The notes under the pieces are model-generated. The model had not been told where the DNA came from and ran no database searches. It worked only from the letters and a program-made list of their open reading frames with translations. The position numbers were made by a program, and so were the translations under genes. From assembly GCA_048499675.1 (NCBI GenBank), contig JASNZL010000008.1, positions 27 to 64,026 of the forward strand: a stretch of 64,000 nucleotides of DNA. Direction: 5' to 3'. Source of the DNA: Candidatus Zambryskiibacteriota bacterium (GTDB taxonomy: Bacteria > Patescibacteriota > Minisyncoccia > Phycocordibacterales > WO2-35-19). Shown one piece after another: positions 12,846 to 57,113 of the stretch (positions are counted from its first letter, which is position 1; the number at the start of each line of letters is the position of its first letter).

Positions 12846-13010
12846 CGAATTGGTTACGAATAGATACGAACAAGAAACGAGGTACGAAGTAGAATTAATC
12901 TAATTACACTAATTAACCTAATTATTCTAAATAATGACTAATTCTCAGTCCTAAATTTAAAATTGGGCATTGAGATTTATTTAGATTAATTAGAAATTAG
13001 AGTAATTACT

Positions 13011-13100
13011 TGTCCCGCGTAGTTTTAACGAAGTGGGACTTGTCCCGCGTAGTTTTAACGAAGTGGGACTTGTCCCGCGCAACTTCAGTGAAGTGGGAGA
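13011..13100. repeat. 3 x 30-bp perfect/near-perfect tandem repeats, each an internal hairpin (GTCCC...GGGAC), at the head of the secretion-like locus
   Basis: tgtcccgcgtagttttaacgaagtgggact repeated twice exactly, third copy tgtcccgcgcaacttcagtgaagtgggaga; no spacers. Confidence 0.8.
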
Positions 13101-17743: not shown

Positions 17744-18325
17744 ATGGATAATACAAAAGAATTATTGATACAAAAAATAGAATCTTTACCCAAAGCATAT
17801 AAAAGCTATATTTTGAGTAAGGAATGGGTTAAAAATTTATCTGAAACTTTTTTAGGTTTTACTTTTGATGAATGGCAAATAACTTCTATTGAAAATGAAG
17901 TATTTATTGTACTTGTTGGTTTAGAGCCATACACAAATCTATCAGAAAATATTTCAAAAGAAGCGGAAATTGACATAGAAACAGCAAACAAAATAGCGGT
18001 GGGTATAATAAATAAAATACTTGGACCAATAACAGAAAAATTTAGAAAAGATTTTGGTATCCCCGAAGAAACAAAACAGCCAGAAAAAACAAACCCGATA
18101 GGAAAATCATTTGAAGAAACAATATTAAACCAAGCGAGAGGGATGATGCCTGCCCGCCACGCTTCGCAAAGCGATGCGGGCGGGCCTGCCCGTCCTGCGA
18201 ACGAAGATACGAGTTACGAGATACGAGATGAGGCAAATAAAAAAATAGAGGAAAACAACAAACCAAATGTTCCATTACCTAATTATTCTGGAGGAAACGA
18301 TCCGTATAGAGAACCAATTCAATAA
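17744..18325 (+). CDS. acidic hypothetical protein carrying an in-frame GC-rich hairpin + heptamer-repeat insertion (MPARHASQSDAGGPARPANEDTSYEIRDE)
   Basis: ORF continuity through the insertion at 18149-18228. Confidence 0.5.
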   Translation: MDNTKELLIQKIESLPKAYKSYILSKEWVKNLSETFLGFTFDEWQITSIENEVFIVLVGLEPYTNLSENISKEAEIDIETANKIAVGIINKILGPITEKFRKDFGIPEETKQPEKTNPIGKSFEETILNQARGMMPARHASQSDAGGPARPANEDTSYEIRDEANKKIEENNKPNVPLPNYSGGNDPYREPIQ

Positions 18326-18454
18326 TTACCTAATTCCTAATTGCCCTAATTAATCTAAACAAATCCAAAGGCCTAATTTTAAAATTGGGAATTGTAGATT
18401 AGTCATTATTTAGAATAATTAGTATAATTAGATTAATTAGAATAATTTAACCCT

Positions 18455-18889
18455 ATGCGTTTTCAAATACCACAATTTATTGATGTAGAAGACCAAATAC
18501 TTGGCCCTTTTACTTTAAAACAGTTTATTTACATTGCAGGAGGCGCAAGCGTTGCTTTGATTTTTGTAACCCTACTTGGTGTTTTTTGGGGACTTTTAGT
18601 TTCTTCTCCAATTGTAATTCTCGCTCTAGCTCTGGCTTTTTACAAAATAAACAACAGACCGTTTATAAACACCCTCGAGTCAGCATTTAAATATATGATC
18701 AAAGACAAACTCTATATTTGGCACAAAAAAGAGCCTGAGGAAAAAGAAGCAGACTCTAGTACCGACAAAAAATTTAGCTCGCTTGTTGTGCCCAACTTAT
18801 CCCAAAGTAAACTCAAGGATATGAACTGGGAATTAGATGTGAAGAAGAAGGAAAACGAGTTACGAGATACGAGTAACGAGATACGATAA
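18455..18889 (+). CDS. small two-TM membrane protein, VirB3/PrgI-like candidate; C-terminus encoded by heptamer repeats (ENELRDTSNEIR)
   Basis: MRFQIPQFIDVEDQILGPFTLKQFIYIAGG followed by two hydrophobic helices; lies immediately upstream of the VirB4 gene, as VirB3 does. Confidence 0.5.
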   Translation: MRFQIPQFIDVEDQILGPFTLKQFIYIAGGASVALIFVTLLGVFWGLLVSSPIVILALALAFYKINNRPFINTLESAFKYMIKDKLYIWHKKEPEEKEADSSTDKKFSSLVVPNLSQSKLKDMNWELDVKKKENELRDTSNEIR

Positions 18890-19192
18890 AAAGATTTTGA
18901 AAATTTAAAATTTAATAAGAGTTAAAACTTAAAAGCGTTTTTGTTTATATAAAAAATTTTAACAGTTAACTCTTTTCATTCCTAGGGTTGTTTTAATCTT
19001 TAAATGATTAATTCAAAATAAAGAATGAATATAACTAATAACAAAGGATATAATACGGTGTATTTAAATTTTTTTATTTTATAAGTGGTGCAAATCAAAA
19101 AATAGGATTATAATCATTAATATAGATTTGGTTGTTTATTTTAAAAATTAATTCGTACTTCGTTACTCGTACCTCGTAACTCGTCCATTTTT

Positions 19193-19813
19193 ATGAAGAA
19201 TGCTACACAAAAATTTGTACCAATAGATGATGTCAGAGATGGCATTGTTATTTTGAAAGAAGGTGGAATGAGAGGGGTCCTTATGGCTTCTTCAATAAAC
19301 TTTTCTCTAAAATCAAACGACGAGAGACAAGCAATCCTGATGCAGTTTCAAGATTTTCTCAATTCTTTGGATTTTTCAATTCAAATACTTGTTCAGTCCA
19401 GAAGATTAGATATTAGACCTTATGTTGCACTGCTTGAGGGACGGCACAAAGAACAAACAAACGACCTTATGAAAATTCAGATAGAGCAATACATACAATT
19501 CGTAAAAAGCTTTACCGAGAGCACAAACATAATGACCAAAAACTTTTTTATTGTCATACCTTATGATGGGGCAATTATCTCTTCAAAAAAAGGAGTATTA
19601 TCTGGGTTTGGGAGTCAAAATAAATCAAAAGAATCACAAGAAGAAGATTTTGAAGAGAGGAAAAACCAACTTGAACAAAGAATGGCAGTGGTTGAACAGG
19701 GACTCGTCCGATGTGGAGTTAGAGTCGCAAAACTCGGAACAGACGAAGTGGTAGAATTATTTTATAAGATATTTAATCCAGGGGAGTCAGAGAAACCTAT
19801 TAAAATTTCGTAG
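19193..19813 (+). CDS. VirB4/TrbE/CagE-family ATPase, N-terminal domain only (5' fragment of a split gene)
   Basis: KFVPIDDVRDGIVILKEGGMRGVLMASSINFSLKSNDERQAILMQFQDFLNSLDFSIQILVQSRRLD and ...NFFIVIPYDG match the conserved N-domain of Gram-positive-type VirB4 proteins. Confidence 0.7.
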   Translation: MKNATQKFVPIDDVRDGIVILKEGGMRGVLMASSINFSLKSNDERQAILMQFQDFLNSLDFSIQILVQSRRLDIRPYVALLEGRHKEQTNDLMKIQIEQYIQFVKSFTESTNIMTKNFFIVIPYDGAIISSKKGVLSGFGSQNKSKESQEEDFEERKNQLEQRMAVVEQGLVRCGVRVAKLGTDEVVELFYKIFNPGESEKPIKIS

Positions 19814-19838
19814 AAATTTTAATTGTAAATAAAACAAA

Positions 19839-20258
19839 ATGAGTTACGAGTTACGAGTTACGAGTTACGAAACAAAAGAGAAAATAAACACTTTTCATGA
19901 TTTAAGAGTGTGGAAAGAAGCACATAATCTGGTTATATCAATTTATAAGACAACTAAAAATTTTCCAAAGGATGAGCTTTTTGGGTTAACTAACCAAATA
20001 AGGAGGTCTGCGGTCTCAATAACATCAAATTTAGCTGAAGGGTTTGGTAGAGAAACAATAAAGGATCGGGTACATTTTTATATTATATCCTTAGGATCAT
20101 TAAACGAAATCCAGAATCAGCTTCTCATTTCAAAAGATGTAGGATACCTAAGTTTAGAAAATTGGAGTAAGCTTGAAGAACAGATTATAATTGTAAACAA
20201 GATGCTTAATGGTTTAATAAAAAGATCCAGATCGTACTTCGTTACTCGTACCTCGTAA
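19839..20258 (+). CDS. four-helix-bundle protein of the 23S rRNA intervening-sequence protein family
   Basis: DLRVWKEAHNLVISIYKTTKNFPKDELFGLTNQIRRSAVSITSNLAEGFGR...SLGSLNEIQNQLLISKDVGYL matches the family consensus. Confidence 0.8.
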   Translation: MSYELRVTSYETKEKINTFHDLRVWKEAHNLVISIYKTTKNFPKDELFGLTNQIRRSAVSITSNLAEGFGRETIKDRVHFYIISLGSLNEIQNQLLISKDVGYLSLENWSKLEEQIIIVNKMLNGLIKRSRSYFVTRTS

Positions 20259-22078: not shown

Positions 22079-22353
22079 AGAAGGGGTAGAAGCTCGTAAA
22101 ATTGAAAAAATTATTCTAATTTCTAATTAACCTAATTATCCTAAAAAAATCCTAAATTCTAAATTCTAAATTTGGAAGTTTTAAATTTTGGATTTTGAAT
22201 TTCTGATTTGCTTGCCCTGTAAAAGCTTGCTTTTATTCGAGTTTAGTATTTCGGATTTAGAATTTAGAATTTTATCGTATCTCGTACTTCGTAACTCGTA
22301 CTTCGTTTGCCTTCATATCGTGTTTTATTTTAAACTCTTGATATAATATCCTT

Positions 22354-39817: not shown

Positions 39818-40261
39818 ATAAATATTATAGCACGCTGTTTGGGATAGAATAAGTTAAAACAACACGAATTAGGGAAACGAGGTACGAGATACGAAGTACA
39901 ATAAAATATTAAATTCTAAATACTAAATCCGAAATATTAAACAAAACTTTAAATTCTAAATTCAAATGTTCAAAACAAAAATTTTATTTTACAATTTAAA
40001 ATTTATAATTCCAGTAACTTGAAAATTAAATTAGTAAGATTGGTCCGCCCGCAACGCCTTAAGTGAAGCAATTGCGGGCAGCAGGTTTCCAAGGACTGTC
40101 CTTGGAAGTGAAAAAACAAATTTTCCAAGGGCTACCCTTGGAAGTGTTTTTAGGATTGTTTTTCAATGTATTTGGTTGGTGTATTGGAACAAAAAAGGCC
40201 TGAAGCCATTGACAAAAGGTTTCAAATTTGCTATAATTAGGGTAGAGAAGGAGAAAGTACA

Positions 40262-40918
40262 ATGAAAAAAGGGTTATTTCTGTCTGTTTTTTTGGCGCTT
40301 GTCCTCTTGGGCGGATGCCGGAAGACCCTCATTGTTCATGTCCCGGTTAGCCCGGGTATGAGCAAGACGGAGGTTGTGAAGGCCGAAAAAGAGGCGACCC
40401 GCCAGGCGGTCGCCGAGAAAAAGATGGAGGAACATGCCTCCAAAGCGGTGAGACAAATTGTCCGCCGTGCCACTCAACAAAACGAGTGGAAGCAAGAGTT
40501 CGCCCTCTCATGTCCCTACGGGGGCTACGAGAGGGTAATCATCCACCCCCACCTAGGAGACCAGTTCACTTATTGGAGGGGTGGGGGAGCCCAAAAAATC
40601 CTCATGCGCAGGGTGGTTATGGTGCATAGGGCGATGAACCCTTACACCAATCTCCCCTGCACCCTCCTCGAGGGTGGCCAGTTGGCGGTGAGCAATATGT
40701 GTCCGGGGGGGAGCATAACACTTGTCTCCTCCATTCCTCCCGTCGTTGGTGGCAGGGCACGGCAGGTAATCTGGACCGCCGAGGCCATGATTGAGGGCAG
40801 GCTCGCTCATAGCGAGTCGTCGCCAGGGATGATCTGGCAGGGGGACATGTGGTGGGAGGTTCAAATGAACCGCCCATCATGGATAATCGAATTCACTCGG
40901 GTGGATAAGGAATTCTGA
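40262..40918 (+). CDS. lipoprotein (lipobox LLGGC) encoded by a high-GC islet; unknown function
   Basis: MKKGLFLSVFLALVLLGGC; GC content visibly much higher than neighbours. Confidence 0.6.
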   Translation: MKKGLFLSVFLALVLLGGCRKTLIVHVPVSPGMSKTEVVKAEKEATRQAVAEKKMEEHASKAVRQIVRRATQQNEWKQEFALSCPYGGYERVIIHPHLGDQFTYWRGGGAQKILMRRVVMVHRAMNPYTNLPCTLLEGGQLAVSNMCPGGSITLVSSIPPVVGGRARQVIWTAEAMIEGRLAHSESSPGMIWQGDMWWEVQMNRPSWIIEFTRVDKEF

Positions 40919-40940: not shown

Positions 40941-40980
40941 AAGGGCGGGGAGCGCAAGCTTCCCGCCCTTTCTACTTTTT
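40941..40980 (+). terminator. rho-independent terminator after the lipoprotein gene
   Basis: AAGGGCGGGgagcgcaagcttCCCGCCCTTtctacTTTTT. Confidence 0.8.
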
Positions 40981-40999
40981 ATGATAGGATAAATGCAAG

Positions 41000-41129
41000 G
41001 TCCCGTAGTAGAAAATGGCATTAAAAGTGTGGTTTGTAAGTATGGATTAAATTGATTATGTTTAAATTACCAACAATAAAAACAAAAATGAGCACCTGCT
41101 TTTAAAGCAATGCCTTTTTTCACTACGGG
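41000..41129. repeat. 130-bp element with 21-bp terminal inverted repeats, copy A, abutting the tsaE start codon
   Basis: GTCCCGTAGTAGAAAATGGCATT ... AATGCCTTTTTTCACTACGGG; second copy at 48931-49059. Confidence 0.75.
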
Positions 41130-41627
41130 ATGCAATATACATCTAAATCAGTCGAAGAGACAGAAGAAATAGCAAAGGATTTTATAAACGATTTTATTTT
41201 ACAGGAGAAAAATAGAGACAAAGCTTTTGTGGTGGGTCTCTATGGCGACTTGGGGGCAGGCAAAACAACTTTTATGAAATGTTTCGCAAAAAATTTGGGT
41301 GTAAAAGAAACTATTCAAAGCCCAACATTTGTCATAATGAAGAAATACGAGTTACGAAGTACGAGTAACGAAGAACGAGAAAAAAAGGAATCTGATTTAT
41401 CGTACCTCGTACCTCGTACTTCGTATGCCTGTTTATATCACATTGATGCTTATAGAATAGAAAAAGACGAGGAAATGTTAAAATTAGGATGGGATGAAAT
41501 AATACACAACCCGAATAATTTAGTTTTTGTAGAATGGCCGGAAATTATAAAAGATATAATGCCACCACATACTAAAATATTTTTTGAACATATAAAAGAA
41601 AACGAGAGGGAAATAAAAATAATTTAA
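41130..41627 (+). CDS. tsaE: tRNA threonylcarbamoyladenosine biosynthesis ATPase TsaE, carrying an in-frame ~80-bp palindromic insertion
   Basis: P-loop GLYGDLGAGKTTF, SPTFVIMKKY, YHIDAYRI. The segment ELRSTSNEEREKKESDLSYLVPRTSYACL is encoded by inverted TACGAG-type arms (41346-41426). Confidence 0.8.
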   Translation: MQYTSKSVEETEEIAKDFINDFILQEKNRDKAFVVGLYGDLGAGKTTFMKCFAKNLGVKETIQSPTFVIMKKYELRSTSNEEREKKESDLSYLVPRTSYACLYHIDAYRIEKDEEMLKLGWDEIIHNPNNLVFVEWPEIIKDIMPPHTKIFFEHIKENEREIKII

Positions 41628-44023
41628 TGAAAGAGAATAAATCAAATAAAAAATTAGTTTTACTTGATGCGCACGCGATTATTCATCGCGCGTACCACGC
41701 CCTGCCAGATTTTGCTACAAGCAAAGGAGAACCAACTGGGGCGTTATATGGTCTTGTGGCAATGATTTTAAAAATAGTTACCGACCTAAAACCAGATTAC
41801 ATAGTTGCTTGTTACGATTTACCAAAACCAACTTACAGACACGAAGTTTATGATGGATATAAATTAGGCAGAGCAAAGACAGATGAAAATTTGGTGATGC
41901 AACTAGAAAAATCAAAACAGATTTGTGAAATTTTAAACATACCAATTTATTCCAAAGAGGGTTTTGAGGCTGATGATATGCTTGGAACAATAGTAGAGAA
42001 ATTGAAAATTCCTGTGGATATAATTATTGCATCTGGTGACATGGATACAATGCAACTTGTAAAAGATGGAACAGGAAAAACTGGAAGTGTTAAGGTCTAT
42101 ACTCTAAAAAAAGGCATAAACGACACCATTCTGTATGATGAGAGTAAGGTAATAGAAAGATTTGGTTTTCACCCAAAATATTTAGCAGATTTCAAAGGGT
42201 TAAGGGGCGACCCGTCGGATAACATCATTGGTATTGTTGGAATTGGAGAAAAGAGTGCAACAGAACTTATAAAGAATTTTGGAACAATTGAAGAAATATA
42301 TAAACAAATCCGAAATCCAAAATCCGAAATCCGAAACAAAATAAAAGAAAGGGTTATAAAATTGTTAGAAGATGGAGAAGAGGAGGCAAAATTTAGCAAA
42401 ATGCTCGCAACAATTAGAAGAGACGCTCCGATAGATTTTGTTTTGCCAGAAACCGAATGGAAAAACGGCGTTGATTTGAATAAGGCAAAAGCGCTTTTTG
42501 CGGAATTGGAATTTAGAAATATGGGCAGTAGGCTTGAAAGTGTTTTGGGTAACGCTTCGGACGAAAGTCGCAAGGACACACAAAAACAAAACGATGATAG
42601 AGATTTGCTTGAGAAATCGCGAAGTGTCGAGGTGGAAGAGGCAAAGGTGGCGCTCTGGGTTCTTGATTCAAACAAAACGGATCCAAGTTTGGAAGATGTT
42701 TTATTTGCAGGTAAATCAGAAAACTTTGATACGGCAAAGAAAAATATCATGGATGAAATAAAAAACAGAGAAAGTGAATTTGTTTTTGAGGAAATAGAGA
42801 AACCGCTAATTCCTATAATAAAGAAAATAGGGGAACACGGAGTTTTGATAGACAAAATTTTCCTAAAAGATTTGGGAAAAAAATATTCAAAAGAGTTAGA
42901 AAAAATAGAGAAGGAAGTCTGGCAAGAAGCAGGCACTGAATTTAATGTTGCTTCACCAAAACAACTAGGAGAGATTCTTTTTGATAAACTCAATCTTTCT
43001 GTTAAAAATCAAAAAAAGACAGCCGGAGGAGCAAAATCGACAAAAGAATCAGAACTAGAAAAAATGAAGGATATGCACCCGATAATTCCACTTGTTTTGG
43101 AATACAGAGAACTTCGCAAACTCTTATCTACCTATATAGACCCAATTCCAAAGATGCTTGATAAAGACGATAGATTGCATGCAAGATTTATACAAGCTGG
43201 CACCACAACGGGCAGAATGTCCTCGGAGAACCCAAATTTACAAAACATACCGATTGGTAGTGATAGAGGGAAAGTAATAAGAAATGCTTTTATCTCACCC
43301 AAAAAAAGAAAACTGGTTGCGATGGACTATTCTCAAATAGAGCTCCGTATATCCGCCTTTCTTTCAAAAGATAAAAAACTAATTGATATTTTTAGAAATG
43401 GTAAAGATGTGCACTCTGCAGTCGCTTCTGAGGTCTTTAGGGTAAATGAATATGAAGTAACAAAAGAGATGAGAAGGCAGGCCAAAGTAATAAATTTTGG
43501 GATTTTATATGGAATGGGAGTTACTGCTCTGCAAGCAAATTTGGGAACAGATAGGAAAACAGCTCAAGAATTTTTGAACGCATATTTTGAGAAATTTGAT
43601 GGTTTAGCAAACTATCTTCATAGGTCAAAACAAGAAGCGAGTGAGCTGGGATACACAAAAACTTTTTTTGGAAGAAGGAGGTATTTTGAGGGTATAAAAT
43701 CAAAAATCCCATTTATCAGAGCAAGTGCCGAAAGGATGGCCATCAACGCTCCTATCCAAGGAACGTCAGCCGATATAATAAAAATTGCAATGAAAAAAAT
43801 TGATGATTATTTGACTCAAAATGAGAGTTCAAAAAAGGCAAATTTGATTATGCAAATTCACGACGAATTAATATATGAGGTAGACGAATCTTTTGTTTCT
43901 GACTTTTCCAAGAATGCCAAAAATATAATGGAAAATACAATAGACAAAAAAGATATATCAGATGTGCCGATAGTTGTGAATGTTTCAGTGGGTGATAATT
44001 GGGGGGAGATGGAAGGATTATAA
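41627..44023 (+). CDS. polA: DNA polymerase I (5'-3' exonuclease + polymerase domains)
   Basis: N-terminal FEN-like LVLLDAHAIIHRAYHAL; polymerase motifs DYSQIELR (A), KVINFGILYGM (B), HDEL (C). Confidence 0.9.
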   Translation: MKENKSNKKLVLLDAHAIIHRAYHALPDFATSKGEPTGALYGLVAMILKIVTDLKPDYIVACYDLPKPTYRHEVYDGYKLGRAKTDENLVMQLEKSKQICEILNIPIYSKEGFEADDMLGTIVEKLKIPVDIIIASGDMDTMQLVKDGTGKTGSVKVYTLKKGINDTILYDESKVIERFGFHPKYLADFKGLRGDPSDNIIGIVGIGEKSATELIKNFGTIEEIYKQIRNPKSEIRNKIKERVIKLLEDGEEEAKFSKMLATIRRDAPIDFVLPETEWKNGVDLNKAKALFAELEFRNMGSRLESVLGNASDESRKDTQKQNDDRDLLEKSRSVEVEEAKVALWVLDSNKTDPSLEDVLFAGKSENFDTAKKNIMDEIKNRESEFVFEEIEKPLIPIIKKIGEHGVLIDKIFLKDLGKKYSKELEKIEKEVWQEAGTEFNVASPKQLGEILFDKLNLSVKNQKKTAGGAKSTKESELEKMKDMHPIIPLVLEYRELRKLLSTYIDPIPKMLDKDDRLHARFIQAGTTTGRMSSENPNLQNIPIGSDRGKVIRNAFISPKKRKLVAMDYSQIELRISAFLSKDKKLIDIFRNGKDVHSAVASEVFRVNEYEVTKEMRRQAKVINFGILYGMGVTALQANLGTDRKTAQEFLNAYFEKFDGLANYLHRSKQEASELGYTKTFFGRRRYFEGIKSKIPFIRASAERMAINAPIQGTSADIIKIAMKKIDDYLTQNESSKKANLIMQIHDELIYEVDESFVSDFSKNAKNIMENTIDKKDISDVPIVVNVSVGDNWGEMEGL

Positions 44024-44238
44024 TTACCTAATTTCTAATTATTCTAATTAATCTAAACAATTACTAATATGGTAAAAAATACAAAATACAGTAAACAAAT
44101 TACATATAAAATACAGGAAGTAGAATAAAACCTAAAACATTTAATTTTGTATTTTATAATTTGTGATTTGTTTATAATTTTAACTTTTGATATTTTTTAG
44201 AAATTATAATAATTAGAGTACTTAGAAAAATTATACTT

Positions 44239-44667
44239 ATGGATTCTTTATTTAAACAATACGAAGGGGTTTTTGATGAAAAAGCTGAAGAACCAAAAAA
44301 GAAAAATGGCGACTTTACTTTTGCCTATAGTCCGTTTGCTCTACAAGATGCAATAGGGGAAAGGAATATAAAAAATATTTGGATTGAATATCAAAAAATA
44401 ATACTTCAAGGTATTGATCCTGAAGAAATAATTTATAAAGTGATTTCAAAAGTTAGGGATATGCTAGCTGTCCAAAAAGGAGCCACCGCAAATGATTTGG
44501 GTATAAAAGATTATCCATACAACAAATCAAAAAAAGATTTGAAGAATTGGAAAGTGGACGAGCTCCTAGATTTTTATGAAAAATTAGTGACCATTTTCCA
44601 CGAATCTAGAATGGGTAAGGACGGCATTGGTCTTGCGCTAGAAAAATTATTTCTATCATTAAGATAA
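44239..44667 (+). CDS. hypothetical protein (142 aa)
   Basis: ORF only. Confidence 0.35.
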   Translation: MDSLFKQYEGVFDEKAEEPKKKNGDFTFAYSPFALQDAIGERNIKNIWIEYQKIILQGIDPEEIIYKVISKVRDMLAVQKGATANDLGIKDYPYNKSKKDLKNWKVDELLDFYEKLVTIFHESRMGKDGIGLALEKLFLSLR

Positions 44668-44700
44668 ATGGCCCACATCGAAGTGTGGACCACAAGAAAC

Positions 44701-45072
44701 CTACCTAATCTTGTCAAAAAAATCAGCTGGTAGTTTGAAGCCGATAAATTTGGATATCTCACCAAACATTATGGGGTCGATAACTGCCTCTTGGGAAATT
44801 ATATCCACGACCGCAAACTTCAAACCTCTTTTTGTAAGAATCCCACCCTTAGCATACTCGCTCAATCTCCAGCTTTCTACGATCGAGGAGACGTCATCAG
44901 AGTAGAAACCATTCGGGGTCACTCTCAAATCAATCCCAGTTTCTATATTCATTTTGGTTACTAAATCATTGTGTTTAGAGGAAATTTCCTCAACCGTTAC
45001 TGGTTTTCCATTAAGCGAAGCCATAACCCAAATCATAAGAGTTACAGCATCACCATTGAATTCATAAGGCAT
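44701..45072 (-). CDS. hypothetical protein (123 aa)
   Basis: ORF only. Confidence 0.35.
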   Translation of the reverse strand: MPYEFNGDAVTLMIWVMASLNGKPVTVEEISSKHNDLVTKMNIETGIDLRVTPNGFYSDDVSSIVESWRLSEYAKGGILTKRGLKFAVVDIISQEAVIDPIMFGEISKFIGFKLPADFFDKIR

Positions 45073-45124
45073 AACACACCTGAAAATTCTTGTTTGAAAT
45101 GCAACTGGCGGTAATATAATTTGT

Positions 45125-46100
45125 ATGGGAAAAACAAGAATTTTCGTCCAGTTGGACGAGCATAAAAGAGACAGGATTGAAGCTCTTTTGACTCAAGGAG
45201 TGGAGAAAAAATTAATAGCTAAAATCATCGGAGTACACAAAAGCACCGTCACAAGAGAGGTACAAAAAAGAAGCAGATTGAATGGAGAATATAGAGCCAG
45301 CTCTGCGGAACACAGCTCAAATTTTGCGGAGCAACTCTAAATATCAAGGCATGAAAATCGAGAGGCATCCGAACTCCGAGGTTCATAATTTCAGAATTAA
45401 AAATATCAATCGATGGCATCGCCGGAAGAATGAGAGAAGAAAAATGGTCAGTCAGAGTTTCGAGATGCTATATACCGATGGCTTCGATCTGTTCACGGAG
45501 TAAGATATTGCAAGTATCTTTGTACCAAAAGATATCGCAAGAAACCGCATACTGATACTCCAAAGAGGCAGATCATCCCAAATATGGTCATATTCACGAT
45601 ATGCCAGGCTAATCCGGGATTTGTGACCGAAGGAGATTATCTCTTTCACCAAAGAAAATATCCAAACGGCGCTGGTATTTGTCGGTTGGAGAGAGAAACC
45701 AAACTAAAGGAATTTGGTTAAAGTTCCCTGACCGATACATACTGCGAGAGTTGGTGAGAAAATTACAATGAAAACATCATTCATGTTATGATTTGACCAA
45801 GGTGGAGAAAACCTCTGAGAGCATGAAAATTCAGCATGAAGACATATTTTTGCATCCTGGCATCTCCGAGGCAGAAACCCTTCATTGAGTCCAGCATCGG
45901 ATTATGTGAAGATATTTTGGCCCAAGGGAACTAATTTGAAAAAAGTATCAAAAGAAGAATTCCAAGAAAAATTGGAAATCTTAAACAACAACAGAAAAAC
46001 GCTTCGTTACCGAAGCGCCAATGAAGCAGCGAGAGAGTGTGGTATCATTCATGGCAATTAGCAACTCCAGTTGCATTTCACCCCAGAATTTACAACCTCC
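45125..46100 (+). pseudogene. IS30-family transposase remnant, frameshifted/degraded, higher GC than surroundings
   Basis: N-terminal HTH QGVEKKLIAKIIGVHKSTVTREVQKRS characteristic of IS30 transposases; downstream reading frame broken into several short ORFs. Confidence 0.5.
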
Positions 46101-46197
46101 TTTCTGGGATATTTATAGCATGATCTAATAACAAATCAAATTAGTAATTTGATTTTATATGGTTTTTATAGTATATTTTGTTGTTGAAGTTATTTAT

Positions 46198-46271
46198 CCG
46201 CCCGTAGCTCAGTCGGTAGAGCAGCTCCCTTTTAAGGAGATGGTCGTAGGTTCGATTCCTACCGGGCGGAC
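46198..46271 (+). tRNA. tRNA-Lys, anticodon UUU
   Basis: acceptor CCGCCCG/CGGGCGG, D-arm GCTCAGTCGGTAGAGC, anticodon loop CTTTTAA, T-arm GTAGGTTCGATTCCTAC. Confidence 0.8.
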
Positions 46272-46272
46272 A

Positions 46273-46540
46273 AGCGTTAAAAAAATCAGAACTGCTTCTG
46301 ATTTTTAGCTTGTCCGAGGCGGAGCGATTTTTTTGTTTTGCGAAGCAAAGGCAAAAACCGCGAGCCGGGTGAGAAGCGAATATTTGGAGCTTCGCAAGAC
46401 CTTTGATAATTTTTATGAGTGTTGCGAGTAAAAATAGAAAAGGTGTACAGGTTCTGTAAGAACCGCGAGATTTTTCCGTCAGGAAAAATACTTGTGACGA
46501 CAAAAGCGTTAAAAAAATCAGAACTACTTCTGATTTTTAA
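46273..46540. repeat. two 36-40-bp direct repeats (terminator-like hairpin AATCAGAACTNCTTCTGATT) bracketing a ~190-bp segment that contains a conserved element shared with 56955-57050
   Basis: AGCGTTAAAAAAATCAGAACTGCTTCTGATTTTTA at 46273 and 46505; inner segment 46369-46464 is ~90% identical (reverse complement) to 56955-57050. Confidence 0.6.
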
Positions 46541-46557
46541 ATTTATACACTTTCTAA

Positions 46558-46962
46558 CTAAAGTGGTAAATCAATTGCAAAAGCGCCAGCTCCGGAGAAG
46601 AGGAGGGATAGTGTGATCGCTAAAATTAAAACATAGAAAACAAAATTTCTTTTTAGAATTGTTGGGTCTTTGTACTCAACGTAAGCTTCGGCAAAAGTAA
46701 GAAGTGCCAAAACAAGAGCGGCTATCTGAGTATAATAACCCAAGAGAAACATAACACCGCCAACAAATTCAATTGCCCCAAAAATTTTTACAGCAATTTT
46801 TGGATTTGGGATGTTTAATGTCGCAAGAGAAACTATCCATCTTTCTTTTTCTCCTTTAAAAGCAAGAAGCCCGAGGTTTACAAATATAAAACCAACAACT
46901 ACTCTTAGTATAAAAGGGGAGAGTAGTCCGTATGTAAGTAATTCTGGGAAAGGATTGAGCAT
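46558..46962 (-). CDS. DoxX-family membrane protein
   Basis: four TM helices; LLSPFILRVVVGFIFVNLGLLAF pattern. Confidence 0.65.
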   Translation of the reverse strand: MLNPFPELLTYGLLSPFILRVVVGFIFVNLGLLAFKGEKERWIVSLATLNIPNPKIAVKIFGAIEFVGGVMFLLGYYTQIAALVLALLTFAEAYVEYKDPTILKRNFVFYVLILAITLSLLFSGAGAFAIDLPL

Positions 46963-47062
46963 ATGATTTAAATTATTCTAATTAACCTAATTTCTAATTA
47001 ATCTAATAGGTACTTGTAAATTGGGATTTTTTTAGAATAATTAGAGTAATTATACACAATAA

Positions 47063-47590
47063 ATGAAAGTTTCAAAAGGAAAAAAGGATGTTGTTGTAAT
47101 TCTGAACAACATAAGGAGTAATGAGAATGTTGGCTCTATATTTAGGACGGCAGACGCTTTTTGTGTTTCAAAAATATATCTATGTGGTTATACACCTGCT
47201 CCGCTGGATAGGTTTGGAAGAGAGAACAAAGGTCTAACTAAAGCATCGCTTGGCGCGGAGAAGATGGTTGTTTGGGAAAAGGTTGAAGATATGAAGGAGT
47301 TGATTAAACAATTAAAAATTGAAGGATATAAAATTGTCGGGATAGAACAAGATACCAATTCGTTAAATATAGAATCTTTTAATTCTAAAATCGTAACTCA
47401 TTACTCGTTACTCGGTTTAATATTTGGCAACGAAGTAGATGGTCTTAATGAAGAGGAACTAAAACTCTGCGACTATATAGTAGAAATACCAATGAGAGGA
47501 AAATTAAAAAGAGATAGGGGAGCAAGTAAAATAAACAAAGAATCCCTAAATGTTGCCGTAACAGCAGGGATAGTATTGTCTAGTATATAA
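47063..47590 (+). CDS. SpoU/TrmH-family RNA 2'-O-methyltransferase, with a short in-frame heptamer-repeat insertion (IVTHYSLL)
   Basis: NVGSIFRTADAFCV, LIFGNEVDGL motifs; insertion at 47390-47415. Confidence 0.75.
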   Translation: MKVSKGKKDVVVILNNIRSNENVGSIFRTADAFCVSKIYLCGYTPAPLDRFGRENKGLTKASLGAEKMVVWEKVEDMKELIKQLKIEGYKIVGIEQDTNSLNIESFNSKIVTHYSLLGLIFGNEVDGLNEEELKLCDYIVEIPMRGKLKRDRGASKINKESLNVAVTAGIVLSSI

Positions 47591-47967
47591 AAGAGATTAA
47601 TTTCTTAGCATAAAATAGAAAGACATAATATTTATTTCGAAAATTTTAAATTTTAAATTCTAAACATAATTTTAAAAATACCAAATTACAGTATCCAAAT
47701 TACAAACAATACACAAATAACAAAATCTAAAATTTAAAGATTTAGGATTTAAGAGTTTGTTTCCCCCTTCGCTAAAGCTTCGGCGGGACAAGTCGGATTT
47801 CGGATTTAGGATTTAGAATTTTAGTTAAGCTTTTATACGATTTGTGAGTAGCTTTATAAACTTTTTACCTTCAAACTTTCTAACTAATATATTCGTGTTA
47901 TTCGTGTGCATTCGCCCGCCTGCAACGTGTATGCGATAGCATTGCGGGCAGGTATATTGGTGTCGCG

Positions 47968-48930
47968 TTAGTATTTTATAGTCGCTACTACGAGCCCATT
48001 TTCGTCATGTAAATTTATGACATCATTTTTGGTTCTCCATAACGTACCAAATCTACCTAGATAAACCCTATAAATATTTCCCGGGAAATCGGTGTCCCCA
48101 AAATGGGTAGCTACGCACATATTGTAGTTAATCTGAGTGGTTAAGTATGTTTTGCATGAAGTTGTAACAGTGTCAGGCAAATCTCTAATGAACTCATTAT
48201 CTATTGTTCTACATCTACCTATTCTTTCAATAATCTTTACACACTCATCGTGTCTATCTGGAATGGATGAAAATAATGGGAGATTTTCGTCTTTCGCACG
48301 TGGGCACTGTAGAGGTAATCTTGGGTAAAAAGTGCGGTTTTCTTCAAAATAACCAGTACACTTGTTTGTTCTAAAAGAGATACCGATTGGAGAAAATCCT
48401 TTGGTTACGATGGCCTTATCTCCTTTTTGCAAAACAATGTCACTTTCTGTTTTTGTATTTGGAAAAGGTAAAAGTGATGCTCTACCAATCATTGCGTAAT
48501 TTCCTGTAACTTCACTCCTAAAATACCAGCCAGTAATATTTATCGTTTCAGTTATTTTGAGATTTGTAGACAATGTTAAATATTCTTTGCTTGGGTCACT
48601 TTGCCTAACCCCAGAAATATTGGACATTCTTATTTTGCCATAATATGGCGACCTCTCTTTGGGTACTACTTGCTTCGATATGTTTCTTTCCAGTTTTTGA
48701 AGATCTCTTTCTATTTTTTTTATCTCGTCTGCAAGTACTTTATTTGAAGTTTCTCCAAGATTTGTTCCGGAACTTGTATTGCTTCGTCCGACAGAGGAAG
48801 ACCCTTCTGTAGAAGCAGTTTTGCCCGAGCTTGTCTGTCTGTCACTCGAGCTATTTTTGATTGGTCCATAAGCAAGACCAACTACGATTATTAAAACTAA
48901 TATTACAAATATAGGTGTTTTGTCTTCCAT
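47968..48930 (-). CDS. N-terminally anchored Ser/Thr-rich and Cys-containing extracytoplasmic protein; unknown
   Basis: MEDKTPIFVILVLIIVVGLAYGP anchor; no family recognised. Confidence 0.45.
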   Translation of the reverse strand: MEDKTPIFVILVLIIVVGLAYGPIKNSSSDRQTSSGKTASTEGSSSVGRSNTSSGTNLGETSNKVLADEIKKIERDLQKLERNISKQVVPKERSPYYGKIRMSNISGVRQSDPSKEYLTLSTNLKITETINITGWYFRSEVTGNYAMIGRASLLPFPNTKTESDIVLQKGDKAIVTKGFSPIGISFRTNKCTGYFEENRTFYPRLPLQCPRAKDENLPLFSSIPDRHDECVKIIERIGRCRTIDNEFIRDLPDTVTTSCKTYLTTQINYNMCVATHFGDTDFPGNIYRVYLGRFGTLWRTKNDVINLHDENGLVVATIKY

Positions 48931-49059
48931 CCCGTAGTGAAAAATGGCATTGCTTTAAAAGCAGGTGCTCATTTTTGTTTTTATTGTTGGTAATTTAAAC
49001 ATAATCAATTTAATCCATACTTACATACTACACTTTTGATGCCATTTTCTACTACGGGA
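48931..49059. repeat. 130-bp TIR element copy B (reverse orientation on + strand), abutting the start codon of the 47968..48930 gene
   Basis: CCCGTAGTGAAAAATGGCATTGC ... GATGCCATTTTCTACTACGGG; ~90% identical to copy A. Confidence 0.75.
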
Positions 49060-49106
49060 CCATCCCGTTAGAAGTATAAAATTATACAATTGAAAATAAA
49101 TTTTCT

Positions 49107-49973
49107 CTAACTATACTTTATTTGGTGTATGGGACAGAAGTGAGAACTACGTCCTTTTATCACCATTCTCTCTATTATACCCGAGCATCCGTTTTTTGGA
49201 CACTCTGCCCCTTTTTTGCCATAAACCTTGTGAAAATTTTGAAAACCACCTTTTTTGCCAAAAGCATTGCGATAATCTGATTTAGAATCGCCTCCATGCT
49301 TAATTGAAAGTTTTAATATTGTTAGCATAGCTTTAAATATTTCTATAAATTTATTTTCTGGAATTTTTTCACTCTTTGACGCGGGGTGTATACTAGTTTG
49401 CCAAAGTATTTCATCTGAATAAATATTACCAATTCCAGCAATGGTGTTTTGGTCAAGTAGACTTGATTTAATTGGCCAATTTTTCTTTCTATGAATCAGC
49501 TCAAAAAGTTTTTTTGAATTTAATTTTGGATGGAAAGGGTCAATACCGAGTTTTCCGAGTGTTTCGTGCAAATGATTTTGATCCGTTTTTGAAATAATGA
49601 CAGAAGCAAATTTTCTCAAATCTGAAAGTAGTAAATAGTGATTATTTGAAAGTGTGAAAATGAGGTGAATATATTTTTCATCAGAGAAATCTTTTTTATA
49701 CATAAGGCACCCTGTCATTTTCATATGCACCACGATTGTATGGTCAGTGCTTAAATTTATTAAAATATTTTTACCTCTTCTTTCTACACTTTTAATTTTT
49801 GAACCCTTAGTAATTTTTCGGAACTTATCAAAATATTTTTTGTTCTTTATGTTTTGTCGATTGTTATATTTTGAACCAATATAAAAATCCGACCAGACAT
49901 CCTTAATTGTCTTGCCAATAACGACACTTTTCAAACCTTCTACGGTTGTATGTACTTCGGGTAATTCAGGCAT
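49107..49973 (-). CDS. mutM: formamidopyrimidine-DNA glycosylase (Fpg/MutM/Nei family)
   Basis: N-terminal MPELPEVHTTV (catalytic Pro2/Glu3), H2TH, C-terminal zinc finger CPKNGC...CPIHQ. Confidence 0.9.
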   Translation of the reverse strand: MPELPEVHTTVEGLKSVVIGKTIKDVWSDFYIGSKYNNRQNIKNKKYFDKFRKITKGSKIKSVERRGKNILINLSTDHTIVVHMKMTGCLMYKKDFSDEKYIHLIFTLSNNHYLLLSDLRKFASVIISKTDQNHLHETLGKLGIDPFHPKLNSKKLFELIHRKKNWPIKSSLLDQNTIAGIGNIYSDEILWQTSIHPASKSEKIPENKFIEIFKAMLTILKLSIKHGGDSKSDYRNAFGKKGGFQNFHKVYGKKGAECPKNGCSGIIERMVIKGRSSHFCPIHQIKYS

Positions 49974-56553: not shown

Positions 56554-56811
56554 ACTTTATCTCCTGTTTGGAAAGTTTTATATCGAGTTACGAGCGCTCG
56601 ATATTGGTCCTTAACCATAATAGCATACTACATATTAAAAGTCAATGTTTTATAAAATCATTAAATAGTGTCTTTTGGGCCACTATTTCTTCTTGGCTAA
56701 ATAATTTAGATACTTTTTACTCAGAAGAATCTAACTTATTTGTTATTGAGTCTTGGTATTAATTAATTATTACAACGCCGTGCCTCTCTGCTAGTAAAGC
56801 ACCTTGCTTGC

Positions 56812-57113
56812 TCGAGGGCACAAAATATTTTGTTTTTTGTGCCCTCGGTAGGAGTATTTCCCTCGACTCAAAATTTTTTCAGTCAAAAAATTTCGGTCTG
56901 GGCACCGGCTCATGGAAATTTATTTCTAAAAATTTCACATTCCGCCGTTCGATTTCTTACAGAAACTGTACACCTTTTCTATTTTTATTTCGCAAAACTC
57001 ATAAAAATTATCAAAGGTCTTGCGAAGCTTCAAACATTTGCTTCTCACCTACACGCAAGCAAAGCAGTTTGCTTGCTCGAGAGCACAAAATATTTTGTTT
57101 TTTGTGCCCCACT
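56812..57113. repeat. two 10-13-bp-stem hairpins (CGAGGGCACAAAA..TTTTGTGCCCTCG) bracketing a ~230-bp segment that contains the conserved element 56955-57050
   Basis: hairpins at 56812-56848 and 57077-57113; inner conserved block matches 46369-46464 (reverse complement). Confidence 0.6.

Follow-up and report, generated by a model that had tools for sequence, protein, structure and literature searches.

In the 64,000-nt window analyzed here (the whole stretch of contig DNA from a Candidatus Zambryskiibacteriota bacterium), two very similar sequences with inverted termini lie directly in front of the start codons of two genes, which raises the question of what kind of element they represent and what such an element does at a gene start. 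First, we found that the positions given for them in a preliminary description (41000-41129, copy A; 48931-49059, copy B) agreed with the sequence, as did the observation that each copy directly abuts an ATG in the same orientation to its gene, with credible genes at both ATGs. However, the copies were more alike than the ~90% identity proposed there: the real value was ~97% (4 mismatches in ~133 nt), with an identity of 0.97 for the interiors. A repeat search of the window returned the pair as 146-nt arms with 94% complementarity, and similarity dropped at once outside GGT...ATG.A, giving sharp edges. The termini were indeed inverted, but the repeated unit extended slightly past the ends first assigned and its pairing was imperfect. 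Only these two copies were present in the window (nhmmer --max). For the terminal 20-mer and the interior 31-mer, 0 matches were expected in shuffled sequences, which excludes chance, and the predicted folding of the copies was 3.6-3.8 sd better than that of shuffled sequence.

A key feature overlooked previously is that the start codon and the next bases recur on the upstream side of each copy. Around copy A, ATGCAA occurs at 40993-40998 and again at 41130-41135; around copy B, ATGG occurs at 49063-49060 and again at 48930-48927.

Copy A lies on the + strand, downstream of a terminator-like hairpin (40941..40970) that ends the preceding gene (40262-40918), and thus begins a new transcription unit. 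A -10-like hexamer, TATGAT (40980..40985), is found 7 nt before the upstream ATG and is presumed to be a leaderless promoter of tsaE-polA, because the same TATAAT-N6-8-ATG geometry occurs in the family described below and in many genes of the window. The left target-site duplication (ATGCAA, the tsaE start; 40993..40998), after which an atypical extra GG precedes the T, opens a short upstream ORF of 20 codons (MQGPVVENGIKSVVCKYGLN and a stop; 40993..41055), which crosses the 5' arm CCCGTAGTAGAAAATGGCAT (41002..41021). Within the variable interior (41022..41109), CAAAAATGAGC (41083-41093) is a decoy of the 5' arm, and GCTT-TTA-AAGC (41098-41108) forms a small hairpin immediately ahead of the 3' arm ATGCCTTTTTTCACTACGGG (41110..41129), which differs from the family consensus by one uncompensated A-to-T change. 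The right-hand copy of the duplication is the ATGCAA start of tsaE (41130..41627), the TsaE Pfam match begins at residue 6 of its product, and polA follows with overlapping stop and start.

Copy B is read on the - strand. Its host gene (47968..48930) encodes a 320-aa protein with an N-terminal membrane anchor, for which a Pfam search gave no match, and the ATG of this gene (48930-48928) comes directly after the 3' arm ATGCCATTTTTCACTACGGG (48931..48950). Further upstream are the interior (48951..49038, 97% identical to that of copy A), the 5' arm CCCGTAGTAGAAAATGGCAT (49039..49058) and the left duplication ATGG, which repeats the gene start (49060..49063); the upstream ATG opens an ORF of only three codons (ATG GTC CCG TAG). 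Directly upstream of the duplicated ATG, a relic at 49064..49080 (..CTTCTAACGGG) resembles the family 3' ends (..CACTAACGGG and then ATG), a likeness that suggests a former tandem insertion of an older element, and a promoter-like site, TAGAGA-17-TATAAT, is located at 49081..49109.

Second, the two copies belong to a dispersed family. The terminal 20-mer was identified at at least 116 loci in ~55 MAGs, almost all from Patescibacteria (Paceibacteria/Minisyncoccia), and single MAGs had as many as 8 or more of the loci listed; ~7 of the matches listed were from other phyla and lacked the second arm (~9 were expected by chance). The anatomy was nearly universal: start codon plus 2 nt, T, the 20-nt arm CCCGTAGTAGAAAATGGCAT, interior, inverted arm (ATGCCATTTTTCACTA..GGG), and the ATG of the gene plus the same 2 nt. 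The interior varied from 20 to 150 nt and the whole element, which has no coding capacity, from 61 to 170 bp; short variants (61-68 nt) kept only the arms and had no decoy. At least 5 nt were repeated from the start codon on in 86 of 95 copies, and the dinucleotide after the start was the same on both sides in 85 of 91 (permutation mean 31.8, maximum 47), giving a 5-bp target-site duplication, ATGRA, with a target consensus of ATG-R-A only; both window copies carry a duplication of their own. The upstream start was ATG in 82 of 95 copies and GTG or TTG in 6, and non-ATG copies were also flanked by direct repeats of 5-7 nt (TCAAC in L018, ATAAAAT in L101). Element-free orthologues had a single ATGNN behind TATAAT-N6-7 (empty sites), the tandem copies L105 and L076 each had their own ATGAA, and L072 and L089 were 95% identical at unrelated loci of two MAGs. 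The family was also directional (nhmmer forward scores were 30-50 bits above reverse), with fixed orientation to the gene; 94 full copies adjoined a long ORF, and more than 90% of copies were at gene starts. The earlier suggestion of a MITE-like family is thus upheld by terminal inverted repeats, absence of coding sequence, a 5-bp duplication, more than 110 loci, empty sites and tandem insertions, and we regard the window repeats as members of a family of miniature mobile elements of this kind, non-coding and ending in inverted repeats, which occurs in Patescibacteria (Paceibacteria/Minisyncoccia) and has not been described before. No published description of the element was found in the literature, no cognate transposase with matching ends was found, and no larger element bounded by the arms was detected in 0.9 Mb of loci.

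The same data bear on whether the pair could be left over from a local duplication, or could mark the two ends of a composite transposon of 7.8 kb with tsaE-polA, tRNA-Lys and an IS30 relic as its cargo. The copies do delimit a 7.8-kb block geometrically, as noted previously, and they are inverted and unusually alike (97%); however, the block does not behave as a functional unit. The edges of the repeat are sharp and more than 100 copies are dispersed elsewhere, so the two do not sit in a segmental duplication. Moreover, each duplication matches the gene beside it, and the block itself is not flanked by one; its contents are ordinary core genes (TsaE, PolA, a HolA fragment, tRNA-Lys, DoxX and SpoU), and the inverted repeats of the IS30 relic are unrelated to the arms of the element. 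Hence, this explanation is already largely refuted and appears extremely improbable. The same applies to its variant in which the element supplies an outward promoter, a role also proposed in the preliminary description: although a weak -10-like AAAAT(GG) lies ~40 nt before the real ATG in ~30% of copies, no -10-like hexamer was present 0-10 nt before it in 90 of 90 copies, and no internal promoter position was conserved.

Upstream of the element, by contrast, a -10-like hexamer was found 5-9 nt before the upstream start in 55 of 88 copies, compared with 13.5% of random ATGs, and a same-strand ORF ended no more than 10 nt upstream in 23 of 87. Host gene starts had no Shine-Dalgarno (SD) sequence; some were leaderless, with a -10 box 6-8 nt upstream, and the others abutted the stop of the previous gene (translationally coupled). 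To judge from this arrangement, the promoter is the gene's own and lies upstream of the duplicated ATG. The structured 5' UTR suggested earlier is plausible, as inferred from the position of the element between the -10 box/duplicated ATG and the real ATG and from a predicted stem of 20-22 bp. At the level of sequence, these observations demonstrate integration at start codons with ATGRA duplication, in fixed orientation, at SD-less host starts. Integration of this type leaves a complete start codon on either side, which raises the question of how ribosomes still reach the real start.

Third, folding and conservation suggested that the arms matter at each locus. The arm stem was part of the MFE structure in most copies, with 99% of arm positions predicted to be paired, and complementarity of the extension beside the arms was higher within than between elements (p = 2e-12). 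A decoy of the 5' arm was present only on the 3' side (p = 8.5e-13 vs 0.38), and when the 5' arm was blocked in the fold the last 10 nt before the AUG were mostly unpaired. The antisense strand folded as well as the sense strand, so the structure may act in RNA or in DNA. A tandem non-Watson-Crick pair (5' AG opposite 3' TC) was present in both window copies and in 90 of 90 relatives examined, and the imperfect termini are apparently by design. In five orthologous pairs, arms (36 of 36) and ATGNNT (6 of 6) were identical, whereas identity was 0.54-0.89 in the interior and 0.42-0.67 at third codon positions. Because the arms, the upstream ATG and the tandem A.C/G.U mismatch stay fixed and the interior drifts, selection appears to act on each copy. 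Old, apparently immobile copies had perfect arms with almost no covariation, which is expected neither of a decaying selfish MITE nor of a purely structural RNA and counts against the model favored below; the unchanging arms imply a protein partner that recognizes their sequence, such as a transposase, nuclease or binding protein.

Such selection on both arms and the upstream ATG, together with the fixed orientation and with alternative pairings typical of RNA switches, could also fit a cis-regulatory leader encoded by the host, serving a global regulon as its operator or RNA switch, with protein-bound arms, spread by duplication or recombination and co-regulating ~20-30 operons per genome. 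However, the hosts are unrelated housekeeping genes (115 Pfam families in 90 proteins, including SecY, MreB, MurG, FtsA, TopA and LigA) that share no function, presence or absence differs among orthologues, and the target-site duplications, tandems and 95-97% identical copies at unrelated sites mark insertion events. In addition, conservation is lowest in the interior, where a riboswitch would normally have its conserved core. We therefore consider a regulon of this type improbable.

With confidence a little above even, we favor a MITE-like element specialized for SD-less start codons that is transcribed as a hairpin leader and neutralizes its own insertion. The gene's own promoter would transcribe the element as the first ~130 nt of the mRNA, and the 20-nt arms would zip into a ~22-bp stem whose base takes in the A and U of the real AUG, setting the two AUGs side by side. 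Ribosomes, whether entering at the 5' end or coming from the cistron before, would still reach the upstream AUG and translate the short, non-conserved ORF into the 5' arm, melting the stem; the internal decoy would then hold the freed 3' arm, leaving ..CACUACGGG-AUG single-stranded and the real start usable. By this melting and capture, the element would cancel the effect of its own insertion, and in compact genomes only insertions that duplicate a start codon would survive. Recognition of ATGRA alone should give common neutral intergenic copies, yet nearly all copies are at gene starts, so extra targeting or strong filtering has to be assumed. Both the use of the real AUG by ribosomes and protein recognition of the arms are inferred. 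Several observations argue against this scheme: the upstream ORF (family median, 16 codons) has no conserved stop position and is very short in copy B, the upstream ATG is outside the usual frame in ~12% of copies, and the short variants are decoy-less. A comparison of L080 with L043, for its part, argues against co-evolution of the duplicated ATGNN with the second codon of the gene; such co-evolution would mean that the duplication is not passive.

The hairpin might instead be a processing signal, with RNase III or a dedicated sequence-specific endonuclease cutting the 22-bp stem or its 3' base; this would remove the leader and restore an mRNA with no leader, or almost none, that starts at the real AUG or close to it. 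In favor of this, the arms are frozen at orthologous sites, the invariant mid-stem mismatch is as expected of a defined nuclease substrate, the interior is dispensable, promoter-proximal and operon-internal hosts would be served alike, leaderless mRNAs are probably translated by this organism (as the -10/ATG geometry indicates), and RNase III, RNase J and PNPase are retained in CPR genomes (PMC12641178). In ~92 of 95 copies the real ATG also follows ..GG with zero spacing, in contrast to an upstream junction that varies by 4-8 nt; however, zero spacing results automatically from a duplication that starts at the ATG and is thus not independent evidence. Processing would not require the upstream ATG, which is nevertheless conserved, RNase III usually cuts inside a stem rather than at its base, and an Rfam search matched no ribozyme or other family. 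We regard processing as unlikely; if true, the element would be intron-like and self-neutralizing, and release of the ~130-nt hairpin might yield a stable small RNA.

The hairpin-leader model preferred here assumes a MITE-like mode of insertion. Alternatively, rather than a classical cut-and-paste MITE, the element might be a REPIN-like doublet of GTAG-tagged REPs that a single-copy transposase of the RAYT type (Y1/HUH) mobilizes as single-stranded DNA and that is kept long-term with its host. It shares with REPs, REPINs and RAYTs as described (PMC3733652, PMC3337134) a GTAG near the outer end and a CTAC at the other (CCC-GTAG-TAG ... CA-CTAC-GGG), two conserved inverted units around a poorly conserved spacer, large-hairpin potential and vertical persistence with conserved arms. 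In addition, the imperfections in its pairing are strictly conserved, resembling in this the hairpins that HUH enzymes recognize. However, REPs are mostly downstream of genes (PMC3733652), each is palindromic, and they are thought to move as single-stranded DNA without target duplication, whereas this element is found at gene 5' ends with a 5-bp direct duplication and a 5' unit that has no local complement (p = 0.38). The polarity variant GA/CT, moreover, does not track the minority gene strand. To our knowledge, Y1 single-strand transposition makes no target duplication, and a REPIN-like origin seems rather doubtful.

Among known systems, ribosome shunting or hairpin-bridged initiation (CaMV 35S leader, T4 gene 38 split SD) and translational bypassing (T4 gene 60) resemble the proposed leader in that a short ORF or start precedes a stable hairpin by which a distant start is brought near, or in that matching codons flank an untranslated insert. 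We know of none of these three that is a multi-copy mobile element or duplicates a start codon, and for this element, known here from sequence, the likeness is an analogy alone. Mycobacterial interspersed repetitive units (MIRUs) are directional intercistronic repeats whose small ORFs overlap the start and stop of flanking genes; they are likewise tolerated via translational coupling, but are tandem minisatellite-like units that lack both long inverted arms and a duplicated start codon. Correia repeat enclosed elements (CREE) of Neisseria, which duplicate TA, are the best analogue in terms of how the element may work. CREE are ~100-150-bp TIR elements that adjoin and are co-transcribed with genes, their inverted repeats form a hairpin that RNase III can bind or cleave, which alters expression of the adjacent gene, and they can create promoters at their ends and bind IHF (PMC2649163). 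However, they are not at start codons and occur in both orientations, whereas the present element, from a different phylum, has a 5-bp ATGRA duplication, one orientation and no promoter function that we could find. Rickettsia palindromic elements (PMC10969869) are also palindromic, mobile and tolerated within genes of a reduced genome because insertion is compatible with function; translation runs through them in frame and adds them to the protein, whereas this element contains stop codons and lies between two start-codon copies. Finally, prokaryotic MITEs (PMC10969869) share its small size, terminal inverted repeats, target-site duplication, non-coding nature, multiple copies and presence/absence at orthologous sites; the terms 'start codon' and 'leaderless' are absent from this 2024 review. 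In contrast with MITEs, the element described here has no cognate IS that we found, a fixed orientation to the gene, and arms that stay fixed, even in old orthologous copies, as the interior changes, and it targets the start codon itself (ATGRA), so that the duplication regenerates the start.

The window carried two copies of the element. Copy A (41002-41129, forward strand) abuts the ATG of tsaE, with polA next, and copy B (48931-49058, reverse strand) abuts the ATG of the gene for a 320-aa anchored protein; both ATGs open credible genes, and the shared orientation and direct contact with the ATG claimed in the preliminary description hold for both. Alignment with the flanks revealed four mismatches in about 133 nt and a likeness that stopped sharply outside GGT...ATG, and a repeat search of the window returned the pair as inverted arms of 146 nt (94% complementary). 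Their interiors were 97% identical, compared with an average of 0.69 for pairs within the same MAG, and zero occurrences of the terminal 20-mer and the interior 31-mer are expected in shuffled sequence. For each copy, the long terminal stem predicted exceeded shuffled sequence in stability by 3.6-3.8 sd. An unfiltered profile search found no third copy in the 64-kb window. Copy A lies between two ATGCAA sequences and shows, on its upstream side, an extra GG that is atypical, and the reconstructed empty tsaE site is GGATAAATGCAATATACATC; copy B has ATGG on both sides and is directly preceded, at 49064-49080, by a relic of the 3' end of an older element. The only public contig encoding exactly the TsaE of the window (Logan contig SRR21762701_625310, L117; 4 kb) begins 45 nt before tsaE, within the element, which indicates that this repeat breaks short-read assemblies.

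The 7.8-kb block that the two copies had been thought to delimit proved to be coincidental: each duplication matches its own gene, and the genes between are core genes. The degenerate IS30-family element inside it (45081-46094) has a frameshifted transposase, of which an N-terminal HTH-like ORF (45125-45340) and a C-terminal ORF encoding '..FWPKGT..' (45885-46061) are left, and its 28-bp inverted repeats (45081-45108 and 46067-46094) are unrelated to the element arms. A peak of cumulative GC skew and a switch in gene orientation, from mostly forward to mostly reverse, were observed at about 47000-48500, which is compatible with a replication terminus or convergence point; the element-bearing genes of copies A and B are convergent and face each other across this switch.

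Several other features of the window were recorded. The segment 56000-64000 had a GC content of 0.44-0.52 versus about 0.34 elsewhere, and Shine-Dalgarno sites of the GGAG type precede its genes, in contrast to the TATAAT-N6-ATG arrangement at most other window genes; the segment has the look of an island of foreign origin or of a chimeric join in the assembly. A 67-nt inverted repeat (90%) lies at 46368-46434, just past tRNA-Lys (46198-46271), and at 56983-57049, on the edge of the GC-rich segment, where a 55-nt direct repeat (56790-56844 and 57055-57109) flanks it; an integrated element could have left these repeats as remnants of its attachment sites. Runs of TACGAG(T/A)-like heptamers, a second repeat family, occur at gene borders (18838-18892, 19153-19199, 19822-19876, 22270-22314, 39860-39914 and 41330-41384), one of them inside tsaE, where it encodes ..YELRSTSNEERE... 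AT-rich intergenic repeats with CTAATTA/TAATTAG were found in both orientations (12893-13015, 18322-18447, 22108-22155, 44020-44067 and 47005-47052), and a hairpin-like, GC-rich 52-nt sequence (CTGCCCGCAATCGC...GCAGGCGGGC) is present at 1980-2031 and, inverted, at 40030-40081 with 88% identity, possibly as a shared terminator or another small repeat. The tmRNA gene (1436-1841, reverse strand), a classical integration hotspot, is accompanied by a perfect 47-nt direct repeat (1047-1093 and 1258-1304) and by a 51-nt direct repeat with 88% identity (1202-1252 and 1382-1432).

To place the pair in a wider context, bacteria and archaea were scanned for CCCGTAGTRRAAAAWGGCAT with one genome per species. 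At least 116 loci matched, and the element is thus a family rather than a local duplication. All but about seven of the listed loci belonged to MAGs labelled Patescibacteria, Paceibacterota, Minisyncoccia, Nomura-, Zambryski-, Wolfebacteria or Saccharibacteria, the last label being probably an error for some of the element-bearing MAGs; among the matches listed, a single MAG carried up to eight or more loci. The approximately seven matches in other phyla consisted of a single arm only and fit the estimate that a pattern with this much information would match about nine times by chance in 596 Gb. A phage origin was also considered and rejected, since the one IMG/VR match was a lone arm within a coding region, consistent with chance. 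Single-arm relics were rare (about 5%). Rfam 15 yielded nothing at the gathering threshold in the window and no credible match in the element at E<=10; a full-text literature search that included the arm sequences returned no prior description, and a 2024 review of prokaryotic MITEs does not mention start codons or leaderless genes (PMC10969869). We conclude that the family is genuine, that it has not been described before, and that its niche is unusual and sharply delimited.

When the matches were aligned in register, a common architecture emerged: a start codon plus about 2 nt, a T, the 5' arm CCCGTAGTAGAAAATGGCAT, a variable interior, the 3' arm ATGCCATTTTTCACTA(N)NGG, and a start codon followed by the same 2 nt that opens a long ORF. 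We refer to the first of these codons as the upstream ATG and to the second as the real ATG. Lengths ranged from 61 to 244 nt, mostly 120-135 nt; no transposase gene was found in the element, whose only ORF is short and non-conserved (median 16 codons). The terminal inverted repeats have arms of 20-22 bp, 99% paired over 90 copies, with invariant ends (CCC-GTAG-TAG.. and ..CA-CTAC-GGG). Short variants of 61-68 nt at three loci outside the window (L018, L075 and L083) retain the arms and little else. Clear compensatory arm changes were confined to two subfamilies: a short one with arms AGATTTTGGCAT / ATGCTAAAATTCAC, in which AAAA/TTTT is swapped to TTTT/AAAA on both arms (L023 4890-4958, L039 2452-2519 and L001 about 2879), and a second one with arms AAAAAGGCAT / ATGCCTTTTT (L018, L075 and L083). 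Some elements are followed by a short related mini-palindrome, ATCCCGTTAGAG..ACGGGAT, whose arms measure 8 nt (L097 5760-5790 on the reverse strand, L112 at about 2960, L057, and 49064-49069 in the window); it may represent a sister family or have arisen by deletion.

The duplicated start codon proved to be part of a direct repeat. Among 95 copies with a long downstream ORF, 86 had a repeat of at least 5 nt starting exactly at the start codon; the duplication was ATGNN+T in 52, the T matched as well in 22, and a few had 6-8 nt, so that about 80% of copies have a duplication of 5 bp and others one of 6-8 bp. The upstream codon was ATG in 82 of the 95, GTG or TTG in 6 and another codon in 7, and a T preceded CCCG in 92. 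The dinucleotide after the start codon was the same on both sides in 85 of 91 copies (permutation mean 31.8, maximum 47), and even where it was other than AA or GA both sides matched in 13 of 15. Moreover, non-ATG copies were flanked by direct repeats of their own, namely TCAAC (L018), ATAAAAT (L101) and GTGAA (L011). The dinucleotide match and these last repeats show that the flanking repeat is a genuine target-site duplication, usually of 5 bp. Reconstructed empty sites revealed no target constraint other than ATG-R-A, with A at +5 in 69 and R at +4 in 67 of 74; for comparison, about 22 of 56 window genes start with ATGRA.

Filled and empty sites were consistent with this view. Homologues of host genes that lack the element in other MAGs have a single ATGNN right behind the -10 box; for instance, the gene at L115 is filled and its homologues at L108:78, L048:978 and L025:7194 are empty, all starting with ATGAT. 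Tandem copies, each with its own ATGAA, were found at L105, L076, L050 and L023, and the copies at L072 and L089, which precede different genes in two MAGs, shared 95% identity over 152 nt. Perfect arms were also present in copies from more distant MAGs that precede murG, ftsA or the gene for the M50 protease. Some of these copies carry distinct duplications (ATGCAA at L088 and ATGGAT at L093 versus ATGAG at L016), which points to independent insertions at one gene. The second codon of the L080 gene has been altered to give ATGAA, and the copy upstream of the element retains the ancestral ATGGA, as in the orthologue at L043; the upstream copy is therefore a passive duplicate that is not updated. 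In 8-kb pieces around the loci (0.9 Mb), no arm pair spanned more than 306 nt, as an autonomous partner with these ends might, and the terminal repeats of the IS30 relic in the window are unlike the arms. It seems well supported that the element is MITE-like and non-autonomous, makes a 5-bp ATGRA duplication, and is specialised for, or filtered to, starts without a Shine-Dalgarno site.

In 94 of 125 matches, the element adjoined the start codon of a long ORF. A -10-like hexamer ended 5-9 nt before the upstream start in 55 of 88 copies, compared with 13.5% of random ATG triplets in the same loci, and 37 of the 88 had hexamers with at least five of six TATAAT matches, compared with 3.3% of random ATGs; the spacing to the upstream start peaked at 6-7 nt. 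The same TATAAT-N6-ATG geometry is found at many ordinary genes of the window, so leaderless mRNAs are evidently in use by these organisms. Insertion directed to transcription starts would fit a duplication of 4-8 nt that always begins at the A of the ATG. However, a same-strand ORF of at least 80 codons ends no more than 10 nt from the upstream ATG in 23 of 87 copies, some overlapping it as ATGA; the element thus also occurs at translationally coupled internal starts, which weakens that idea. The feature common to the hosts is the lack of a Shine-Dalgarno site at the start codon rather than a transcription start. The host genes themselves are functionally unrelated core genes (115 Pfam families in 90 proteins), including those for MurG, FtsA/PilM, an M50 protease, GreA, ScpA, SecY, MreB, FtsW, TopA, LigA, CTP synthase and aminoacyl-tRNA synthetases. 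It had also been proposed that the element supplies a promoter. None of 90 copies has a -10-like hexamer 0-10 nt before the real ATG, on which ground an internal leaderless promoter was rejected, and no promoter at a fixed place was found inside the element, so that this proposal is not supported.

Folding predictions placed an arm-arm stem of 20-21 pairs within the MFE structure of 76 of 90 copies. Inside the arms, the stem is extended by element-specific nucleotides, with -7.9 kcal/mol for a copy's own partner versus -5.3 for mismatched partners (better in 79 of 90, p = 2e-12), and in a 4-bp hairpin that immediately precedes the 3' arm, double changes were seen at each of the four pairs. The element is asymmetric: the 3' part of its interior holds a decoy of the 5' arm (..AAAUGGY..) for which pairing to the distal 3' arm half is predicted at -7.3 kcal/mol, compared with -5.0 in shuffles (p = 8.5e-13); no such local partner was detected for the 5' arm (p = 0.38). 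When the 5' arm was kept single-stranded in the prediction, the distal 3' arm found a local partner and, in most copies, the 10 nt immediately before the AUG were left unpaired. The A and U of the real AUG are possible pairing partners for the T that precedes the 5' arm and the A at +5, and many copies have a loosened 3' stem base (CAGG in 30, ACGGG in 21, CGGG in 18, and others). Profile scores were 30-50 bits higher in the direction of the gene; sense and antisense MFEs were equal, and wobble counts in the arms were ambiguous as to strand.

The pattern of conservation was examined in five element pairs before orthologous genes from different MAGs (73-90% amino-acid identity). Arms (36/36) and the upstream ATGNNT (6/6) were identical, whereas identity was 0.54-0.89 in the interior, 0.53-0.70 in the 30 nt upstream and 0.42-0.67 at third codon positions; each copy thus appears to be under selection. 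The central two positions of the stem were never complementary, with AG opposite TC (A.C plus G.U) in 82 of 90 copies and GA opposite CT (G.U plus A.C) in the other 8; both types coexist in one genome with the orientation of the interior unchanged. The GA/CT type did not differ in a neighbour-orientation proxy, and its use as a lagging-strand mark for recognition of single-stranded DNA was rejected. Since arm positions are almost invariant, they yield no covariation signal, and this near-absence implies some sequence-specific reader of the arms; the 0.9 Mb of loci and the IS30 relic in the window contained no partner protein, a transposase with these ends included.

How the element works can be modelled from these features. 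It is probably transcribed from the gene's own promoter, as no promoter was found at a fixed place inside it or in the 0-10 nt ahead of the real ATG; a structured 5' UTR, as suggested in the preliminary description, is plausible in view of the predicted stem between the two ATGs, for which we infer transcription. The stem would mask the first two bases of the real AUG, and its foot would bring both AUGs together. Ribosomes might still enter at the upstream AUG, read the short ORF and melt the stem, thereby exposing the real start. We favour this ribosome-entry model because of the conserved upstream ATG, the decoy on the 3' side only, the loosened stem base, and the use of both leaderless and coupled sites. 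A conserved leader peptide or coupling distance was rejected, as the upstream ORF stops at varied distances from the real ATG (24-130 nt ahead of it) and about 12% of copies are out of frame; an in-frame translated insertion was dismissed on account of stop codons in the copies examined. The main rival, removal of the leader by a nuclease, would account better for the frozen arms and the invariant mismatch, and RNase III, RNase J and PNPase are kept in CPR genomes (PMC12641178); however, it leaves the conserved upstream ATG unaccounted for, and ribosome entry at that codon is still preferred here. A stronger reading, which we regard as rather unlikely, is that the hairpin is more than tolerated and serves as an obligatory expression device, recognised throughout the clade by a protein dedicated to it. 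Either a nuclease specific for the sequence would excise the element from the mRNA and so recreate a leaderless start in an intron-like manner, or the stem would pass ribosomes from the duplicated AUG to the real one, as in a bacterial form of shunting; this requirement would keep the arms, the tandem A.C/G.U mismatch and the upstream AUG frozen in all copies.

Patescibacterial genomes are tiny and gene-dense, and mobile elements are few in them. Nonetheless, dozens of lineages have this family in front of essential genes (secY, mreB, murG, ftsA, topA, ligA and others). If our reading is true, it would be the first mobile element to have the start codon of genes without a Shine-Dalgarno site as its niche, surviving there by duplication of this codon; we know of no described element with start-codon duplication, restriction to such starts, and conservation of arms, upstream AUG and tandem mismatch in each copy. 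It would offer a natural experiment on start recognition at leaderless and coupled genes, with an AUG 130 nt from the 5' end that is held beside it by a stem, and would point to a protein reading a 20-bp sequence conserved across a class-level clade. The element may also mislead gene callers on start sites in CPR genomes.

Comparison with known classes supported the earlier label 'MITE-like', which is borne out by terminal inverted repeats, 5-bp duplication, dispersed copies and empty sites. Like MITEs, the element is small (<about 500 bp) without a transposase gene, has terminal inverted repeats (20-22-bp arms) and a target-site duplication of characteristic length, and occurs as many dispersed copies with empty sites (filled and empty orthologues, tandems, and 95-97% identical copies at unrelated sites); in contrast, no cognate autonomous IS with the same ends was found in the 0.9 Mb of loci. 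Integron attC sites are imperfect hairpins in cassette arrays beside an integrase and attI, whereas copies of the element are dispersed singly before core genes with their own promoters, no arrays of them were seen, and their size range and conserved mismatches are merely reminiscent of attC. Riboswitch-type leaders have a conserved core, covarying stems and one gene class; the element differs in all three, its interior being the least conserved part (0.55 identity between MAGs) and its stems invariant rather than covarying. A REPIN/RAYT-type system is suggested by the doublet architecture and the end tag (PMC3733652, PMC3337134), GTAG (or CGTC) in REPs and an invariant GTAG...CTAC here, but clashes with the target duplication, the gene-start site and the non-palindromic 5' unit: each REP is a 20-40-bp palindrome, extragenic and mainly downstream of genes, whereas the element lies at gene starts and has a local complement for its 3' arm only. 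Correia elements (CREE) are Neisseria-specific in sequence, with a 26-bp TIR, outward promoters and an IHF site, and the element differs in sequence, phylum and promoters, so the likeness is one of functional analogy only. In kind, the family may be regarded as MITE/REPIN-like repeats that would act as RNA hairpins in the Correia fashion (PMC2649163).
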